In this document: positions 11,199-30,758 of the stretch, piece by piece
Numbering within the stretch: the stretch's first letter is position 1
Layout: every line of letters starts with the position of its first letter
From: Chitinophaga solisilvae
GTDB lineage: Bacteria > Bacteroidota > Bacteroidia > Chitinophagales > Chitinophagaceae
Length of the DNA stretch: 32,000 nucleotides
NCBI RefSeq assembly: GCF_009928525.1
Contig: NZ_JAABOK010000011.1
Coordinates: 228,400-260,399 of the forward strand
Reading direction: 5' to 3'
Notes under the pieces: generated by a model
What the model was told of the DNA's origin: nothing
What the model saw: the letters and a program-made list of their open reading frames with translations, nothing else
Database searches by the model: none
Made by a program: the position numbers and the translations under genes

Positions 11199-11330
11199 TT
11201 AATAATTATGAATTAAGAATTATGAATTATGAGTTAAAGGGAGAAGATCCAAGCGAATAATAGAATAGTTATTCGCTTGGATCTTCTCCCTTTAACTCAT
11301 AATTCATAATTATTAATTCATAATTATTAA
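11199..11330. repeat. Long hairpin repeat element 1 (62-nt arms, 8-nt loop)
   Basis: 11199-11260 is the reverse complement of 11269-11330 with one mismatch (61/62). The loop is TAGAATAG. The outer arms are 7-nt tandem units (ATGAATT/AAGAATT/ATGAGTT). The right arm ends exactly at the stop codon (11331-11333) of the lipoprotein gene. 11211-11242 is 30/32 identical to 25596-25627 in element 3. Confidence 0.9.
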
Positions 11331-11950: not shown

Positions 11951-11988
11951 TGGTTATTTTATTATTTGATTATTTGAGATTTGATTAA

Positions 11989-12108
11989 CATTTACGGATT
12001 TTGGAATTTTGGAATTTTGAGATTTTGAAAATGCAGCGAAGACCATTGTGTAAATATTTGCTGCATTTTTAAAATCTCAAAATTCCAAAATTCCAAAATC
12101 CGTAAATG
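11989..12108. repeat. Long hairpin repeat element 2 (48-nt arms, 24-nt loop)
   Basis: 11989-12036 is the reverse complement of 12061-12108 with one mismatch (47/48). The arms are 8-nt tandem units (GGAATTTT GGAATTTT GAGATTTT GAAAAT). The right arm ends 1 nt before the stop codon (12110-12112) of the LLM oxidoreductase gene. The core 12017-12042 matches 16021-16044 (24 identical positions, two 1-nt gaps). Confidence 0.9.
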
Positions 12109-12109
12109 A

Positions 12110-13108
12110 TTATCTGATGCCGAAGCTCTGCGCCAGCAGTTCGTAGGAACGGAGGCGGTCTGCATGATCGGGGGTGATGGTGGCGATGACCAGTTCATCC
12201 ACGTCGTAGGCGGCGGCGAGCTGCTCCAGCTGCGCTTTTACCTGGGTGGGCGTACCGGCTACCATACGGCCGCGGTTGGCCTGGATACGTTGCTGCTCTT
12301 CCGGTGTGTAGGTGATATCCTTCACATCGGCGTAGTCGATGTTGAGGTCATAGCGACCTTTTTCAAAGCTAAGCAGGCGATAATCCATAACGGCCTGGAG
12401 TTGTGCAGCCTTTTCTTCGGTGTCGGCGCAGAACACGAATATGCCTACGCTGGCCTGGGGTGCGGATAGCCAGGCGGAAGGCTTAAACTGTTTGCGGTAG
12501 TTGCTCACCGCCTGAGGGCCGCCAACCGGGTAAATGAAGTGGGCGAAAGAAAGGGCCATCCCGAAGTGGGCAGCCAGCAGGCCGCTTTCCCCGCTGGAGG
12601 TAAGTATCCAGAGGTCGGGGGTGGTAGGAATAGAAGGAATGGCTCTCACCTTTTCCTGCATGGAGCCGGGTGCGGCTGTGTCGGTGAGCCATGCTTGCAG
12701 ATCTACGAGCTGCTGTACAAATTCTTTCGGATCGAAGGTGTTGGAAGGGTTCAGCAAATGCGCCGTTACGCGGTCGCCGCCAGGGGCGCGGCCTATACCA
12801 AGGTCTATCCTGCCGGGATACATGGCTTCCAGCAGCCGGAAGTTCTCCGCTACTTTCAGGGCACTGTGATTGGGCAGCATGACACCGCCCGATCCCAGCC
12901 GGATGCGTTCCGTGACGCCGGCCAGCCTGGCAATTAATATTTCCGGTGAAGCGCCGGCCAGGCTTTTTGTATTATGATGTTCCGATAACCAATAGCGTGT
13001 ATAACCCAGCTTGTCAGCCAGTTTCGCCAATTCCACGCTTTCGTGCAACGCTTCGGTGGCGTTGCTGCCTTTTCTGATGGGCGACTGATCCAGTACACTA
13101 AGTTTCAT
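12110..13108 (-). CDS. LLM-class (luciferase-like) flavin-dependent oxidoreductase
   Basis: 332-aa ORF. The N-terminus MKLSVLDQSPI...LGYTRYWLSEHHN and GRIDLGIGRAPGGD are typical of the YhbW/MsnO8-type luciferase-like monooxygenase family. Confidence 0.88.
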   Translation of the reverse strand: MKLSVLDQSPIRKGSNATEALHESVELAKLADKLGYTRYWLSEHHNTKSLAGASPEILIARLAGVTERIRLGSGGVMLPNHSALKVAENFRLLEAMYPGRIDLGIGRAPGGDRVTAHLLNPSNTFDPKEFVQQLVDLQAWLTDTAAPGSMQEKVRAIPSIPTTPDLWILTSSGESGLLAAHFGMALSFAHFIYPVGGPQAVSNYRKQFKPSAWLSAPQASVGIFVFCADTEEKAAQLQAVMDYRLLSFEKGRYDLNIDYADVKDITYTPEEQQRIQANRGRMVAGTPTQVKAQLEQLAAAYDVDELVIATITPDHADRLRSYELLAQSFGIR

Positions 13109-15788: not shown

Positions 15789-16008
15789 TTATTTAATATT
15801 TAATTGTGAACTTGTTCTCGCCAATTATTAGACAGGCGGCTACCTGGGCGACTAGAAGAAAAAATGTAAAATAAAAGCTGAGTGTAAAAGGAGATTACCA
15901 ACAGAATTGAAATACAATATTCTTAAGAAGCGCAACGAAGATAAGAGTTTTCCGGAATACGAACCAAACTTTTTTTACCGCAAGGCCCCATCCCGTTTGA
16001 TTATTTAA

Positions 16009-16184
16009 TTATTTTATTATTTGAGATTTTGAAATGAGCGAAGATTTTTTAGGTTCATTTACCCTATTCTAATATCAAATAATAAGATGATAAAATAAAT
16101 TTATATTTTACTGTTTGAAGTTTAACATAAAATGTACTTCTCTTTTGAATTCTTGCTTTGCCTTCAAATCTCAGATAATAAAAT
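16009..16184. repeat. Degenerate/open member of the hairpin repeat family (element 4)
   Basis: ATTTTATTATTTGAGATTTTGAA (16011-16033) is an imperfect inverted repeat of 16163-16184 (one mismatch, one 1-nt indel), with a ~130-nt centre. 16021-16044 matches the element-2 core. 16009-16024 is identical (16/16) to 11954-11969. Confidence 0.45.
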
Positions 16185-16215
16185 AAAAAAATAACTACAT
16201 ATTTTAGCGGGTTAT

Positions 16216-20483: not shown

Positions 20484-25536
<5,053 letters not shown>

Positions 25537-25540
25537 TTAA

Positions 25541-25797
25541 GAATTGCGAATTACGAATTACGAATTGCGAATGATAGCGAAGATGGAAATCTGATAATTA
25601 AGAATTATGAATGATGAGTTAACGGGAAAATAGCAGCGAAGCTAAAAGCTGGCATAGGCATAAAGAACAAGTGTTAATAATGCTTCCATCTCCGCTCTTA
25701 TCTTCCCGTTAACTCATCATTCATAATTCATAATTCTTAATTATCAAATTCCCATCTTCGCTATCATTCGCAATTCGTAATTCGCAATTCGTAATTA
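25541..25797. repeat. Long nested hairpin repeat element 3 (~90-nt arms, imperfect centre)
   Basis: 25541-25628 pairs with 25703-25797, with a few mismatches and one 7-nt unit indel. The outer module is GAATTGC/GAATTAC heptamers + GAATGATAGCGAAGATGG. The inner module is AATTAAGAATTATGAATGATGAGTTAACGGGAA, homologous to element 1. The element fills the susD-GH2 spacer, including the susD stop codon, and ends 8-13 nt from the GH2 ATG. Confidence 0.88.
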
Positions 25798-27324
25798 TTT
25801 AGCAAGCGGGTTGTTTAATGTTTCTTTCAGCGGCAGCGGGAAATAGTTATTCGCTGTTGTCCAGGTACGGCCTGCAGCCTGCATGTTTGTTGCCAAAAGG
25901 CCCCAGCGGCGAAGGTCGTAGAAACGGCTGCTTTCCAGCGTGAACTCCATGACACGTTCGTGCACGATCTGGTTAAATACGTCTGCGGAGGCAGTCAGGT
26001 TCAGTGCAGGCATTGCGGAGCGTGCGCGCACATCGTTGACCTGTTCCATGGCTTTATCCTGGGCGCCGAGGTGGTTCTGTGTTTCCGCATACAACAGCTT
26101 CACGTCCGCAAAGCGGATGATAGGCATATTGATGGCGGTTGCGTTGCCCAGCAGGGCGCTGCTGGCAGGAATCCATTTGCGGAAGGCAATGGCGCCGTCG
26201 TTGTTTTTGAACACGTCGTCGTAGATCTCATCATATACGCGCGGGTTTGCGGGATCGTTGAAGTAGGCATCCTTGAAGAAAACAGTACTGTAGATACGGT
26301 GATCGTACAGGCCATCGGAGGCTGTTTTGCCTTCTTTCTTCATTTCTGCCAGCAGGCGTGGCGTACCATAGATTTCGCCGTAGCCGCCCAGTTCAAAGGC
26401 TGCGATCCAGTCGCTCAGCTGTGATTTGAAGTAGTTCCCATTGGATTCATCCATGGTCATCTGCAGTTCGAAAACAGATTCTTTGGAATTCTTCAGTGTA
26501 CCGTTGAACATGCCCATGAAATTGGATTCGAGGGAGTATTCATTGGAGTCCATCACTTTCTTCAGCCAGGTAGCAGCTTCTGTGTAGTATTTGGTTTTGT
26601 TGGCGGCATCTTCACCACCGCGGTAGATCAGCGCCTTGCCCAGGTAAGCCTGTGCAGCGCCTTTGGTGGCCCTTCCCAATTCCTTGTTAGGTCTGCCACT
26701 GCGGAGTGGCAGGTCAGCTTCCGCCAGCTTCAGGTCATTGATAATCAGATCCCATACTTCACTGCGGGAGGCAGGAGCTTTAGGCATATCAGATTCGCCT
26801 TCAGGCACTTTGTCACGGATGATTACCTTTTCGAAGTTGGTCAGCAGTTTAAAGTAGTAATAGGCTTCCAGGAAGCGGGCTTCCGCCAGGATAGCCTTGC
26901 GGCTGGCCTCGTCGATCTGGTTGTCGGTCATCGCCGCTACGTTGGCCAGCACCTGGTTGGTGAAGTTGATACCGCGGTAATTATCTTTCCAGAAATAATC
27001 GATGGCCACATTGTCTGACTGATAGGTGAAGTTGTATATCTCCATCCACCAGCTGTAGTTGTAGGCGTCTGTACCTGGTTCCACGAAATCTTCGCGGAAG
27101 TACTCGCGGCAGGAACGGCCTTCGATGAAGTTTTCCCAGCCTACGAAGCTCTCGACCTGTGAATAGGCGGCAGCCAGGCCGCTGAGTGCGCGCTCCCGGC
27201 TGTTCCAGAAGTTATCGGTAGTCAGCTTATCAGGAGAGTTCTGGTTCAGCAACTCCTTTTTGCAGCCGGTGCTGCAAAAAAGTCCTGCTGATACCAGCAT
27301 TGTATATAACAAAGATTTTTTCAT
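25795..27324 (-). CDS. SusD/RagB-family nutrient-binding outer-membrane lipoprotein
   Basis: 509-aa ORF with lipoprotein signal MKKSLLYTMLVSAGLFCSTGC and TPR-like SusD composition (LAEARFLEAYYYFKL; C-terminal RFYDLRRWG). It lies 11 nt downstream of a SusC-like gene. Confidence 0.92.
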   Translation of the reverse strand: MKKSLLYTMLVSAGLFCSTGCKKELLNQNSPDKLTTDNFWNSRERALSGLAAAYSQVESFVGWENFIEGRSCREYFREDFVEPGTDAYNYSWWMEIYNFTYQSDNVAIDYFWKDNYRGINFTNQVLANVAAMTDNQIDEASRKAILAEARFLEAYYYFKLLTNFEKVIIRDKVPEGESDMPKAPASRSEVWDLIINDLKLAEADLPLRSGRPNKELGRATKGAAQAYLGKALIYRGGEDAANKTKYYTEAATWLKKVMDSNEYSLESNFMGMFNGTLKNSKESVFELQMTMDESNGNYFKSQLSDWIAAFELGGYGEIYGTPRLLAEMKKEGKTASDGLYDHRIYSTVFFKDAYFNDPANPRVYDEIYDDVFKNNDGAIAFRKWIPASSALLGNATAINMPIIRFADVKLLYAETQNHLGAQDKAMEQVNDVRARSAMPALNLTASADVFNQIVHERVMEFTLESSRFYDLRRWGLLATNMQAAGRTWTTANNYFPLPLKETLNNPLAK

Positions 27325-27335
27325 AACGAATAATT

Positions 27336-30300
27336 TTAGAATTCCAGTTGCATACCAACCATAAACACTTTGTTCTGCGGATATTTCCAGCGATCGATAC
27401 CATTGCTCAGGCTACCGTATTTCCGGGTAGTGGGGTCGCTGTTCAGTGCGTCCGCATTACCGATTTCAGGATCCAGCCCTGAATATTTGGTGAAGGTGAG
27501 CAGGTTCTGTCCACTTACGTAGAGGCGTAACCGTGATATTTTAGCCATTTCCAGCAGTTTCGGAGAGAAGGCATAACCCAGCTGCAGCATCTTCAGGCGC
27601 AGGTAGCTGCCATTTTCCAGGAAGCGGGTAGATTCGCGGTTGTTTCTGTTCGGATCACCTAACACAGCACGTGGTATGCTGGTATTGGTATTCTGTGGCG
27701 TCCAGGCATTCAGGGTGCTCACGTCGAAGTTACGGCCGGCATCCATACCCTGGAGTTCATACATATTACCATTATAGATTTTGTTACCGGTAACACCCTG
27801 CCAGAACATCTGCAGGTCGAAGCCCTTGTACGCCAGGTTGATGTTCAGGCCGTATTCCAGTTTAGGGAAATAGCTGCCTTTATAGGTTTTGTCGTTATCA
27901 TCGATCACACCGTCGCCGTTGGTATCTTCAAAGCGGATATCACCGGCTTTTGCGGCAGGCTGTAATCTTTCGCCTTTGGCATTTTTATAGTTGGCCGCTT
28001 CTTCGTCAGACTGGAAAAGGCCCTGTGTCTGATACAGGTAGAAAGCGCCCATTTCCGTGCCTTCGCGGCTGCTGGTAGGGAATACGGAAGTACCGTATTT
28101 CAGACCAAGGCCATTCAGGTACTGTCCCTTGTTGGCCAGTTCCAGCACTTTGTTTTTCACCTGGCTAACGGTACCGGTTACACTATAGGAGAAGTCAGAT
28201 TTTTTATCAGCCCAGGTCAGGTCCAGTTCCCATCCGCGGTTGCCGATGCGGCCGGCGTTCAGGGTAGGCTCTACCAGACCGGCGCTTGGAGCCAGCTCCT
28301 TGGTGATCAGCAGGTCAACCGTCACGTTGTTGAAATAGTTGAAGGAACCCGTCAGTTTATTCAGCACACCAAAATCAAAACCAATGTTGCGGGATACGTT
28401 TGTTTCCCAGCGCAGATCTTTGTTTTTCAGATCCCAGGCGATACCGCCGGGCCATGCCGTGCTGCCATCACCCTGCACATATCCGCCGCCCATGTAGTTC
28501 AGTACGGAGATCAGCTGCTGGTGATCGTAATATCCGAGTACATCTTCATTACCCAGGCGGCCATAGCTGGCGCGTAATTTCAGCTGATTGAGCCAGGTCA
28601 GGGACTGCATGAAGTTTTCACTCTGCATGTTCCAGCCCACCGACACAGACGGGAATACTCCATAGCGGCGGTTTTCACCGAATTTGGAAGAACCGTCGCG
28701 GCGAACGGACAGCTGCAGGAGGTATTTACCATCGTATGCATAGTTAATACGACCCAGTGTAGACAGGCGGTAGTACTGCGGACGGGAGCCGGTTGCCTTG
28801 AAGGAACCGCCGGCAGCGCCATCCATAGTATTGAAGGAAGGATCCAGGAAACCGCCGGGAATCACATTGCTTTCAATAGCGCCATCGCCGTTTACGGTGT
28901 ATACGGTTGTTTTACCATCCGCCACGGTGGTAATGCTGTTTGTCTGATATTGCTGTGCAGTGTAACCCGCCAGCAGGTTCAGGCTGTGCTTACCGAAGGT
29001 GCGGTCATAGTATAACAGGTTTTCCATCAGGCGTTCGCGGTAGTTGGAACGGCCGTCTTCCAGCCGTGCAAAAGGCGTTTCCGGATCGTTTGCATTGGCG
29101 CGGTACGGCGGATGGAAAGCGTAGTTGATATAGTTGGTGTTCACCAGGTTGAGGTTCGTCACGAACTTCATACCCTGGATCAGCTGTAATGACAGGCGGG
29201 CGTTACCATTAAAATACTGGCTCTTGCTGTAGTTGTCGTTATAGAAGTTAACGCCTACAGGATTTTCAAACTTCGGCAGTTCGTTGATCTGCATCCCGTA
29301 GCCATATTTGGATTTTGCATCGTAAACAGACAGCAGCGGGGACTGGAAGTAGGCATCCTTGATGCTGTAAGCTACATCCTTGCGTTCAGTTTCGGCATAT
29401 ACCAGGTTAGCCTCAATGGTGAGGCGGCCTTTCTTATACTCGTTACGGGAACGGAGTGCTTTCTTCTTGAAGTCGCTGCCGATGAAAGTACCTTTATCAT
29501 TGGCGATGCTACCACTCAGGCCATAGTTGAAATAATCGCCGCCGCCGGTAACATTGAGACTGTAGTTTTCAGAACTACCGGAACGGGTGATTTCGTCCTG
29601 CCAGTTGGTGTTGGCAGTAACGCCTGTTTTCAGGTAAGCCGGACGTTTGGCCCTGGGTGCATTATCATACATCATGGTGTGTACTTTCAGGTAGCCTTCC
29701 GCATCCAGCAGTTTCATTTTACCGGTAGGGTTTACCATGCTGTACCAGGCGTTGAATTCCATTTTAGGCGCGCCTTTTTTACCTTTCTTGGTAGTTACGA
29801 GGATAACGCCGTTGGCACTCTTAGAACCGTAAATAGACGCCGCGGCGCCGTCTTTCAGTACTTCAATGGAAGCAATGTCATTATTATTCAGGTAATAGGG
29901 ATCTCCGGGGCTACCATCTATGATAAACAGCGGAGCGTGGGAACCATAGGTGCTTACGCCACGGAGCCTGATATCAGGCATGGCGCCGGGGGTACCACCG
30001 GTATTGTTGACGGTTAAACCCGCCACGCGGCCCTGTAATGCGCCTACAGGGTTGTTGCTGGCTACATTGGCGATCTCGCTGCCTTTAACAGAGGAGATAG
30101 CGCTGGACACCGTTCTTTTGCTCTGGGTGCCGTAGCCTACTACCACCACCTGGTCCAGTACCTTGGTGGAGGTATTGAGGGTAATATCCAGCACCTGCTG
30201 GCCGGTATATGCCACTTCCTGTTTATCGTAGCCGATAAAAGATACTTCCAGCACTGCGCCTGCGGGCAGGTCAGTGAAGCGGAAAGCACCCTTTACGTCA

Positions 30301-30758
30301 GTGAGCATGCCGCGTGAAGTTCCTTTCACGCGCACGCTTACACCAGGCAAAGCCTCTCCTGAAGCAGATTTCACCGTACCTGCCACCGGCTTTTCCTGTG
30401 CCGGTGCAGCTGTGGTTACCATTGCCACATTTCTGGCAGCAGGCACTTTCACCAGGATGATGTCTTCTGTCATCCTGAATTCAAGTGAAGTAACATGACT
30501 GATTTCCTGTAATAAATTCTCTACTGTTCTCTCTTTTTTATCGATCGTAACAGGTTTTAATTTTTCCAGATCGTCAAGATTGTACGAGAATTTCAGACGG
30601 GTATTTTTTTCGAGGTACTGCAGCACACCGAGTACTTTCGTTTGTCTGAAACCAACGTCGATCTTATCTTTCAGACCTTCTGCTATCTGTACCCAGCTTA
30701 GCAAAAGGAAGGACATGAGCATGCCAAAGCATGCCCTCAAAAGGGATGTTTTCGTCAT
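27336..30758 (-). CDS. SusC/RagA-family TonB-dependent transporter with N-terminal STN signalling extension (transducer type)
   Basis: 1140-aa ORF. An STN-like segment (VLGVLQYLEKNTRLKFSY...ENLLQEI) is followed by a carboxypeptidase-regulatory-like domain (VAGTVKSASGEALPGVSVRVKGT) and a SusC plug signature (VVVVGYGTQSKRTVSSAISSV). The barrel ends in F. Confidence 0.92.
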   Translation of the reverse strand: MTKTSLLRACFGMLMSFLLLSWVQIAEGLKDKIDVGFRQTKVLGVLQYLEKNTRLKFSYNLDDLEKLKPVTIDKKERTVENLLQEISHVTSLEFRMTEDIILVKVPAARNVAMVTTAAPAQEKPVAGTVKSASGEALPGVSVRVKGTSRGMLTDVKGAFRFTDLPAGAVLEVSFIGYDKQEVAYTGQQVLDITLNTSTKVLDQVVVVGYGTQSKRTVSSAISSVKGSEIANVASNNPVGALQGRVAGLTVNNTGGTPGAMPDIRLRGVSTYGSHAPLFIIDGSPGDPYYLNNNDIASIEVLKDGAAASIYGSKSANGVILVTTKKGKKGAPKMEFNAWYSMVNPTGKMKLLDAEGYLKVHTMMYDNAPRAKRPAYLKTGVTANTNWQDEITRSGSSENYSLNVTGGGDYFNYGLSGSIANDKGTFIGSDFKKKALRSRNEYKKGRLTIEANLVYAETERKDVAYSIKDAYFQSPLLSVYDAKSKYGYGMQINELPKFENPVGVNFYNDNYSKSQYFNGNARLSLQLIQGMKFVTNLNLVNTNYINYAFHPPYRANANDPETPFARLEDGRSNYRERLMENLLYYDRTFGKHSLNLLAGYTAQQYQTNSITTVADGKTTVYTVNGDGAIESNVIPGGFLDPSFNTMDGAAGGSFKATGSRPQYYRLSTLGRINYAYDGKYLLQLSVRRDGSSKFGENRRYGVFPSVSVGWNMQSENFMQSLTWLNQLKLRASYGRLGNEDVLGYYDHQQLISVLNYMGGGYVQGDGSTAWPGGIAWDLKNKDLRWETNVSRNIGFDFGVLNKLTGSFNYFNNVTVDLLITKELAPSAGLVEPTLNAGRIGNRGWELDLTWADKKSDFSYSVTGTVSQVKNKVLELANKGQYLNGLGLKYGTSVFPTSSREGTEMGAFYLYQTQGLFQSDEEAANYKNAKGERLQPAAKAGDIRFEDTNGDGVIDDNDKTYKGSYFPKLEYGLNINLAYKGFDLQMFWQGVTGNKIYNGNMYELQGMDAGRNFDVSTLNAWTPQNTNTSIPRAVLGDPNRNNRESTRFLENGSYLRLKMLQLGYAFSPKLLEMAKISRLRLYVSGQNLLTFTKYSGLDPEIGNADALNSDPTTRKYGSLSNGIDRWKYPQNKVFMVGMQLEF

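Follow-up and report, generated by a model that had tools for sequence, protein, structure and literature searches.

The REP, BIME and REPIN elements of Proteobacteria are high-copy extragenic palindromes that sit at the 3' ends of genes, are depleted from divergent (promoter) spacers, and form hairpins in which compensatory changes are frequent. The REP between malE and malF of E. coli is the closest functional analogue to the reading that we favor for the locus described here. This operon-internal REP (malEFG) was reportedly found by Newbury et al. in 1987 to stabilize the upstream mRNA and to set protein ratios, and Liang, Rudd and Deutscher are said to have found in 2015 that REPs within ~15 nt of a stop codon can reduce expression upstream. 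REPINs form clusters by inserting into or next to existing copies (PMC3116915). Inverted tandem heptamers build the stems of the ORF-bearing 23S rRNA intervening sequences (IVS) of Coxiella burnetii and Leptospira; RNase III cuts the 28-bp heptamer-repeat stem of the Coxiella IVS, and its heptamer number varies between strains (PMC4990558). Heptamer arrays are also found outside rRNA. Those of Xanthomonas (GGGAATC), Nostoc (GGGGAYT) and the cyanobacterial STRR class are strongly enriched within 50 nt of stop codons and where genes converge or run in the same direction, are under-represented where genes diverge and, in Xanthomonas, are transcribed (PMC4692102). MITEs, including the minisatellite-bearing MITE of Porphyromonas gingivalis (PMC4596501), are short, dispersed, non-coding elements with sharp ends and terminal inverted repeats, which can carry internal tandem repeats and spread in lineage-specific bursts. 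Finally, intrinsic terminators, with a GC-rich stem of 5–15 bp and a U-tract, directly follow stop codons and reach their highest frequency between convergent genes. To our knowledge, termination and mRNA processing have been little studied in Bacteroidota.

We analyzed a 32,000-nt stretch of the Chitinophaga solisilvae genome (the window; contig NZ_JAABOK010000011.1, positions 228,400 to 260,399), in which Pfam matches on the minus strand give, in order, FecR, SusC, SusD, GH2, a GH63-like protein and an APH::class-III aminotransferase fusion. All coordinates are those of the window, and the genes around the sequence of interest read on its minus strand (Table 1). The spacer between susD and the GH2 gene is 267 nt long and consists nearly throughout of one inverted repeat, a near-perfect hairpin at 25536–25799 that we refer to as element 3. 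Its 79-nt arms (25539–25617 and 25721–25799) are 92% complementary. A second diagonal of 54 nt (25596–25649 and 25682–25735; 85%) is offset from the first by exactly 7 nt, and thus the two arms differ by one heptamer. The sense RNA is predicted to fold with a minimum free energy of −153 kcal/mol, compared to −57.8 ± 4.6 for shuffled sequences (z = −20.7; none of 200 shuffles folded as well), and the predicted fold contains a single 7-nt bulge. The outer module is made of GAATTGC/GAATTAC units and GAATGATAGCGAAGATGG, while the inner module, AATTAAGAATTATGAATGATGAGTTAACGGGAA, is similar to element 1 of the same window. The 5' arm of this inner module gives 74 partial matches to other elements of the genome. 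Toward the center, 25629–25649 pairs weakly with 25682–25702. The 3' foot is followed by AAUCCGGAACC, and apart from element 3 the spacer holds only 9 nt (TAA-TCCGGAACC-ATG). A first-pass annotation of the window had described this anatomy, with its two stacked modules, the heptamers of the outer one and the element-1-like inner one, the one-heptamer difference between arms, the weaker central pairing and the inclusion of the susD stop in an element that ends close to the GH2 ATG, and each of these points is borne out here.

Table 1 Features of the susD–GH2 locus and of related elements in the window (window coordinates).
Feature	Position	Strand	Remarks
SusC	27336–30758	−	
SusD	25795–27324	−	
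susD stop codon (TAA)	25795–25797	−	Overlaps the first bases of the element's 5' foot (T+AATTACG); lies in the hairpin foot
Element 3, outer module, 5' arm (mRNA sense)	25743–25799	−	TAATTAC GAATTGC GAATTAC GAATTGC, then GAATGATAGCGAAGATGGGAATTTGAT; GAATTRC foot type common to ~406 family members
Element 3, inner module, 5' arm (mRNA sense)	25703–25742	−	GAATTAA/GAATTAT units and GAATGATGAGTTAACGGGAA; one GAATTAT unit more than the other arm
Element 3, center	25629–25702	−	Imperfect pairing, with a GCGRAG box on each side; 32-nt loop at 25650–25681
Element 3, inner module, 3' arm (mRNA sense)	25596–25628	−	
Element 3, outer module, 3' arm (mRNA sense)	25536–25595	−	Foot ends 8–11 nt ahead of the GH2 ATG
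GH2 (beta-galactosidase family) start codon	25525–25527	−	11 nt from the last strongly paired base of element 3
GH2	22423–25527	−	
Element 1, GAATTAW foot	11199–11330		Adjoins the stop codon of a lipoprotein gene
Element 2 site	11954–12114		Remnant left arm of TTATTTG type (11954–11982), then GGATTT-type element 2 (11983–12114)
Element 4, TTATTTG foot, long unpaired center	16001–16194		In a divergent spacer

A family of long palindromic repeats is found throughout the genome, and element 3 is one of its copies, a nested composite specific to this lineage. In the 7.99-Mb assembly (48.6% G+C, 50 contigs) we counted 914 long hairpins, defined by arms with at least 20 nt in exact 11-mer matches, with a median length of 127 nt and a total of 120 kb (1.5% of the genome), and element 3 ranks in the top ten by size. 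Members share an arm grammar in which a foot of tandem 7–8-nt units is followed by one or more GCGRAGA boxes, and four foot types are found: GAATTRC (~406 copies), TTATTTG (~250), GGATTT (~68) and GAATTAW (~24). The AT-rich arms are 50–110 nt long and end sharply, as (T)AATTACG...CGTAATT(A), in unrelated flanking sequence, and the elements contain 1125 of the 2108 GCGAAGA sites in the genome. The motif GAATTACGAATTRCGAATK has 967 occurrences in this genome and no more than 47 in any one of 40 relatives, which indicates a burst of the family at the level of the species. The whole window gave no match to an Rfam family at gathering thresholds, and literature searches by repeat sequence and for Chitinophaga palindromic repeats found no published description of the family. 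The first-pass annotation had overlooked this ~900-member family, and any explanation specific to the susD–GH2 locus must be weighed against its scale.

That annotation had also suggested that elements insert into or grow within one another, and nesting is indeed found genome-wide. Of the elements, 82 reach 185 nt or more; most of these are composites in which one complete module lies in the loop of another, and composites recur in both orders (GAATTRC around GAATTAW, TTATTTG around GGATTT, GAATTRC around TTATTTG, and TTATTTG around GAATTRC). Arrays of one left arm with three right arms are also present. The linker and center of element 3 match only themselves in the genome; this unique sequence indicates that element 3 arose by an independent nesting event and is not a copy of a recurrent composite.

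In its behavior, the family is an extragenic palindromic repeat similar to REPs, REPINs or MITEs, without the enzyme that defines them and with no recognizable target duplication. Like REP/BIME/REPIN sequences, it is a high-copy set of palindromes that follow genes and avoid divergent spacers, with compensatory changes in its stems and clusters formed by insertion into or beside existing copies. However, we found no match to a RAYT or Y1 transposase (PF01797) in the genome, which is 100% complete, whereas control genomes gave matches, and we therefore rejected membership of the RAYT-mobilized REP/REPIN group. The family elements are also longer (120–260 nt compared to 20–40 nt for REPs), have feet of AT-rich tandem heptamers in place of GC-rich stems with a GTAG/CGTC head, and show several foot types and frequent true nesting. 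With MITEs the family shares its short, dispersed, non-coding and sharply bounded units, its inverted repeats, the possibility of internal tandem repeats and the lineage-specific burst. No target-site duplication was recognizable: among 45 inspected of 420 sharply bounded copies there was no direct repeat in the flanks, and a palindromic TA/AATT duplication would be indistinguishable from the arms. In contrast to MITEs, the inverted repeats make up nearly the whole element, and no parent insertion sequence that encodes a transposase and shares the arms was found: the only cargo between widely separated arms is small, namely two PF05635 genes and a short gene for a GG-leader peptide. The heptamer arrays on which the family builds are like those of rRNA intervening sequences, and element 3, like the Coxiella and Leptospira IVS, has an inverted tandem-heptamer stem in which the number of units varies between strains. 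Unlike an IVS, element 3 has no ORF and sits in an mRNA spacer, not in an rRNA helix, and it belongs to a family with ~900 gene-less copies. Element 3 also resembles the heptamer arrays of Rehm et al. 2015 in that two or more of its tandem 7-nt units lie within 50 nt of a stop codon. The units of the family are nevertheless AT-rich (GAATTAC, GAATTGC, GAATTAT and GAATTAA), unlike the G-rich Xanthomonas and Nostoc arrays that have been discussed as quadruplex formers, and are always paired with an inverted array and joined to GCGRAGA boxes to give a long hairpin.

The elements are closely associated with the ends of genes, as judged from crude ORF calls, on which all the placement figures given here are built. 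We found 352 elements between convergent genes, 462 between co-directional (tandem) genes, 52 between divergent genes and 14 inside ORFs, and ~35% of convergent spacers hold one. The foot lies at a median of 3 nt from the stop codon (interquartile range −2 to 11) and at a median of 59 nt from the start codon. Where a convergent spacer bears an element, little else is left in it (median 9 nt outside the element); convergent spacers that lack one measure 45 nt at the median. We rejected the type of stop codon as an insertion target, as TAA makes up 63% of the stops beside a foot compared to 59% in the background and all three stops are used as in the background. A strict scan for terminators with a GC stem and T-run gave hits after 9.3% of element-free genes compared to 0.9% of control windows. 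Because 989 gene ends are followed by an element and only 448 element-free genes by a canonical terminator, the elements are the commonest structure at gene 3' ends. The family resembles intrinsic terminators in lying directly after stop codons and most frequently between convergent genes, and 93 of its members carry a canonical GC-stem-plus-T-run hairpin at their center. In contrast to intrinsic terminators, its stems are about tenfold longer and AT-rich at the base, and element 3 has no U-tract after its 3' arm; a consensus scan of 25300–26000 found no terminator-like sites. In addition, about 99 of the 462 co-directional elements fill the whole spacer, where read-through must occur, indicating that the family is not a strong terminator in general and that many copies may merely be tolerated.

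Within co-expressed gene pairs the distribution is different. None of 104 susC–susD junctions holds an element, compared to a baseline of 10.2% for co-directional junctions (p = 2.6e-5), whereas elements follow 16 of 82 co-directional susD genes (odds ratio 2.2, p = 0.009), a modest enrichment that rests on crude ORF calls, and 14 of 21 convergent susD ends. The elements thus seem to be selected against where two genes need to be expressed together and to be tolerated or favored at the boundary between transporter and enzyme genes.

The spacer itself can be followed in related genomes. Six congeners carry orthologous susD and GH2 genes in this order (SusD 59–71% identical), with spacers of 8–76 nt and no family element. 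Such short spacers suggest that a single operon was the ancestral state, so that the downstream genes would be read through element 3. The nearest relatives by SusD are C. flava (74% identity; L016) and a second congener (71%; G011), and in both of them the susD–GH2 spacer contains a GC-rich hairpin of 12 bp with a U-run behind it (z = −3.9 and −3.5). In C. flava, SusD has the same C-terminal sequence (NNPLAK*) and stops at the same residue, and the ~10 nt before the GH2 ATG are similar to those of both relatives. Element 3 therefore fills the exact interval of, and stands in the place of, the small terminator-like hairpin of its nearest relatives.

We also compared the locus with that of a sister strain, Chitinophaga sp. 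Mgbs1 (GCA_003994345.2), using 31 kb of its sequence. Over 21.3 kb the two strains show 1.28% substitutions, and no indel of 5 nt or more lies outside elements 2 and 3 in these 21 kb. Element 3 persists in Mgbs1 and changes by gain and loss of heptamer units. The two copies differ by four heptamer units: each inner arm of Mgbs1 carries an additional GAATTAA unit, so that the change is symmetric, and 14 nt are duplicated in tandem where the 3' foot meets the flank, which makes the foot 14 nt longer. There are also six substitutions, two of which change A–U pairs to sense-strand G·U pairs; these two stem changes fit pairing in the sense RNA, though two events prove nothing. At the element 2 site, Mgbs1 carries an intact TTATTTG-type hairpin adjoining the stop of a luciferase-like monooxygenase gene. 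Only the left arm of this hairpin remains in the window strain, where a GGATTT-type element stands instead of its loop and right arm, and the final codon of the monooxygenase gene differs as well (FGIR* and FGI*). The presence of different elements at this one site indicates that the family has turned over within the last 1.3% of divergence and that stop codons were remodeled in the process. Element 1 is conserved bar one substitution and one 1-nt indel.

The stems show compensatory changes between copies. Two length classes, with 95 and 71 distinct copies, had stem columns that were 96–100% Watson–Crick, with up to four pair types per column, including transversion swaps, and 0–2% wobble pairs. 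With the copies oriented by gene direction, G·U and A·C mismatches stood at 55:45 (p = 0.02–0.04), an asymmetry that we judged too weak and rejected as a sign of constraint on the sense-strand RNA. Strand-symmetric conservation of this kind is explained no less well by upkeep of a palindrome in the DNA than by selection on RNA, so that the covariation is no proof of RNA function. A candidate process is template-switch correction of quasi-palindromes during replication, which can yield symmetric arms without any function.

Element 3 probably uncouples expression of the transporter genes from that of the enzyme genes, and our analysis gives an even chance that it is an attenuator, an RNase III processing site or a stabilizer that lowers the enzyme message relative to that of susCD. 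Transcription would start at an ECF-sigma-dependent promoter upstream of susC, and a single susC–susD–GH2–GH63–kinase/lyase transcript would pass through element 3. The resulting RNA duplex of more than 100 bp would then probably have at least one of three effects: stopping part of the polymerases, being cut by RNase III in the manner of the heptamer-armed stems of 23S rRNA intervening sequences, or shielding the upstream susCD fragment from 3' exonucleases. The expected outcome is more SusC/SusD message than enzyme message, and the foot of the element, given its distance from the ATG, may also hinder initiation of GH2 translation. Element 3 itself would have arrived as mobile or copy-and-paste DNA, probably inserted into or replacing the resident hairpin. 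The points in favor of a functional role are indirect, and include the position homologous to the relatives' terminator-like hairpin, the contrast between the susC–susD and post-susD junctions (0/104 and 16/82) and the presence of an RNase III gene (rnc) in the genome. Against it stand the lack of a U-tract, the ~99 tandem copies that fill whole spacers, the strand symmetry of the stems and the modest size of the post-susD enrichment.

The main rival to this role as attenuator, processing site or stabilizer is that element 3 is a selfish or neutral repeat insertion that leaves transcription and translation unaffected, tolerated at a position where insertions are not lethal. We regard this as possible, though on the unlikely side. 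It would account well for the species-specific burst (967 motif matches compared to at most 47 in relatives), for the recent element replacement and unit-number changes between strains, for the ~99 other elements in tight co-directional spacers and for the strand-neutral symmetry of the palindromes, and the unique linker and center of element 3 argue against a conserved regulatory sequence. However, a neutral repeat should not be absent from all 104 susC–susD junctions, which points to non-neutrality within tightly co-expressed pairs, nor does neutrality explain why element 3 sits exactly where the two nearest relatives have a terminator-like hairpin. RNase III is, moreover, very unlikely to leave an RNA duplex of more than 100 bp alone. 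Another reading places the role of element 3 at the level of DNA, where a cruciform or a hairpin in single-stranded DNA would be bound or processed by a nucleoid protein, a topoisomerase or a recombination protein, as has been proposed for REP/BIME elements; effects on the operon would then be secondary. We consider such a role quite unlikely. The nearly exclusive Watson–Crick pairing of the arms, with transversion-type double changes and very few wobble pairs, is what it would predict, and the symmetric gain of one unit on both inner arms between strains and the conserved GCGRAGA boxes, with over half of the genomic GCGAAGA sites in elements, are in keeping with it. Against this, the same symmetry can be obtained from template-switch correction with no function needed, the analysis identified no candidate protein partner, and the strict positioning of elements behind stop codons, together with their scarcity between divergent genes, implicates the transcript.

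The remaining alternative is that GH2 and the genes downstream are transcribed independently, from a promoter within element 3. The first-pass annotation had reasoned that no promoter could fit outside the element, which holds, as only 11 nt remain before the ATG, and that the downstream genes must be read either through the element or from a promoter inside it. Of these two options, the comparison with congeners favors read-through, their 8-nt spacers being among those that suggest ancestral co-transcription, and element 3 is probably transcribed through. An internal promoter appears very unlikely indeed. Any separate promoter would have to sit inside the element, and each strand carries a weak sigma-70-like match, but these matches are mirror images created by the palindrome itself. 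The TAnnTTTG box (Bacteroidetes-type −7) occurs on neither strand of element 3, with one match at a single mismatch, and there is no ORF of at least 20 aa inside it; we thus rejected both small ORFs and an internal promoter. If element 3, as an attenuator, processing site or stabilizer, does split the PUL transcript, then a selfish repeat would have taken over the job of an operon-internal terminator and would set the ratio of outer-membrane transporter to glycosidase. Gain and loss of 7-nt units between strains could in that case let the ratio drift or be tuned rapidly. The genome also provides a large natural data set on the effects of long AT-rich hairpins on Bacteroidota transcripts.

The cargo genes provide a possible link between the family and rRNA intervening sequences. 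Only once among 970 GAATTRC arms is a gene tightly framed by a left and a right arm, and this gene belongs to PF05635 (E = 6.8e-21; G000:C4:159013-159369), the family of the 23S rRNA intervening-sequence protein (S23p), a four-helix bundle. The only other PF05635 gene of the genome (C47:205318-205689) lies between arms of TTATTTG type, so that both PF05635 genes occupy a loop between family arms, as in ORF-bearing IVS. Of 30 PF05635 loci from relatives, about half have inverted arrays of 7–8-nt units on their flanks. In three congeners the units that flank the PF05635 gene are those dispersed in the same genome and are absent from the others: (GAATTAT)n gives 242 matches, in G009 only, and AGCTKTTAGCYTTTAGC gives 129 matches in G022 and 146 in G020. 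The PF05635-flanking arm of a further relative (G028) is not amplified. What is added by the genome described here is the hundreds of gene-less copies that share their arms with single-copy, gene-bearing ones.

We hypothesize, tentatively and with the probability rather low, that the ~900 gene-less hairpins are non-autonomous derivatives of IVS-like PF05635 cassettes and act as mRNA intervening sequences cut by RNase III. Each dominant foot type (GAATTRC and TTATTTG) would then have one single-copy PF05635 'master' locus within its own arms, in parallel to RAYT and REPIN, and heptamer-repeat hairpins would have their long-sought trans factor in the PF05635 protein. The hairpins would insert into existing hairpin loops at gene ends and be cut out or cut through by RNase III, and element 3 would be an mRNA intervening sequence that splits the PUL transcript into transporter and enzyme halves. 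The cause could run either way, with the PF05635 cassette as the source of the arms or with the cassette preferring hairpin loops. In 400-kb samples of seven congeners, which as relatives are not independent samples, long-hairpin density was 2–18 per Mb in PF05635-negative genomes, where all but one (in G001) are ordinary terminator-like hairpins, and 2–92 per Mb in PF05635-positive genomes, compared to 95–114 per Mb in the genome described here. The correlation between PF05635 and hairpin density is only partial, as G009 and G022 are PF05635-positive yet hairpin-poor in the sampled stretch. The link between gene-less hairpins and PF05635 provides a testable handle on the function of the rRNA intervening-sequence protein and on the origin of heptamer repeats, and the interest of the locus would be higher if the connection to PF05635 and RNase III holds. 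The third cargo, the small GG-leader peptide gene, lies, like the second PF05635 gene, between TTATTTG arms.

The spacer between susD and GH2 in the nearest relatives, C. flava and a second genome (G011, locus L002), holds a 12-bp GC-rich hairpin with a U-run, whereas in more distant congeners the spacer is just 8 nt (TAAGGGAAAGTATG). An operon-internal hairpin at this junction therefore predates the repeat element.

Two strains 1.3% apart, our genome and its sister Chitinophaga sp. Mgbs1, carry different elements at the same site downstream of a luciferase-like monooxygenase gene, and the last codon of this gene differs between them (FGIR* vs FGI*). Thus element turnover rewrites gene 3' ends. 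In the unpaired centre of element 4, 15 of 194 positions (7.7%) differ from the sister strain, compared to 1.28% over the whole 21 kb, and this centre is evolving at a rate at or above neutral.

The genome contains only two genes for PF05635 (the four-helix-bundle 23S rRNA IVS protein), and both lie in the loops of family hairpins. Their arms represent the two commonest foot types, GAATTRC around the C4 gene and TTATTTG around the C47 gene. The loop of the C4 copy also includes its own canonical terminator and leader. Arrays of GAATTACGAATTACGAATT also precede a PF05635 gene in a different genus (G025), in the same order, so the heptamer also occurs outside Chitinophaga. Elsewhere in the window's own genome, a terminator-like hairpin and a small minus-strand ORF, reading MKKKISLNQKLSLKKETVGTLLPKQESAAWMAAVKGG..., lie between TTATTTG-type arms. 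The sequence of the ORF resembles GG-leader (RiPP precursor-like) peptides of Bacteroidota, and the ORF is a third kind of cargo enclosed by family arms.

In three multi-arm arrays the repeat unit takes in part of the loop, which suggests that they arose by tandem duplication of half-elements. Unit arrays can evidently also expand in a single arm, as in a strongly asymmetric hairpin with ~19 tandem TTATTTGA units in one arm and ~3 in the other, which surrounds a canonical GC-rich terminator (AAAAAAGCCCGCTGAACAGTTCAGCGGGCTTTTTT).

Positions of the features discussed (G000, the window's own genome; C, contig; L, extracted locus)
Feature	Position	Arms or type
susD-GH2 spacer with hairpin, C. flava	L016:3525-3593	
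Turnover site	window 11954-12114; sister strain L018:5752-5900	
Element 4	window 16001-16194	
PF05635 gene 1	L034:1488-1844 = G000:C4:159013-159369	GAATTRC
PF05635 gene 2	L048:1437-1808 = G000:C47:205318-205689	TTATTTG
PF05635 locus with GAATTACGAATTACGAATT arrays, other genus	L032 (G025:C1:182838-183301)	
Arms enclosing the GG-leader-like ORF (ORF on the minus strand)	G000:C34:396618-397180	TTATTTG
Multi-arm array	G000:C34:331933-332240	1 left arm then 3 right, or 3 left then 1 right
Multi-arm array	G000:C1:573069-573353	1 left arm then 3 right, or 3 left then 1 right
Multi-arm array	G000:C5:188063-188326	1 left arm then 3 right, or 3 left then 1 right
Asymmetric hairpin	G000:C48:38058-38392
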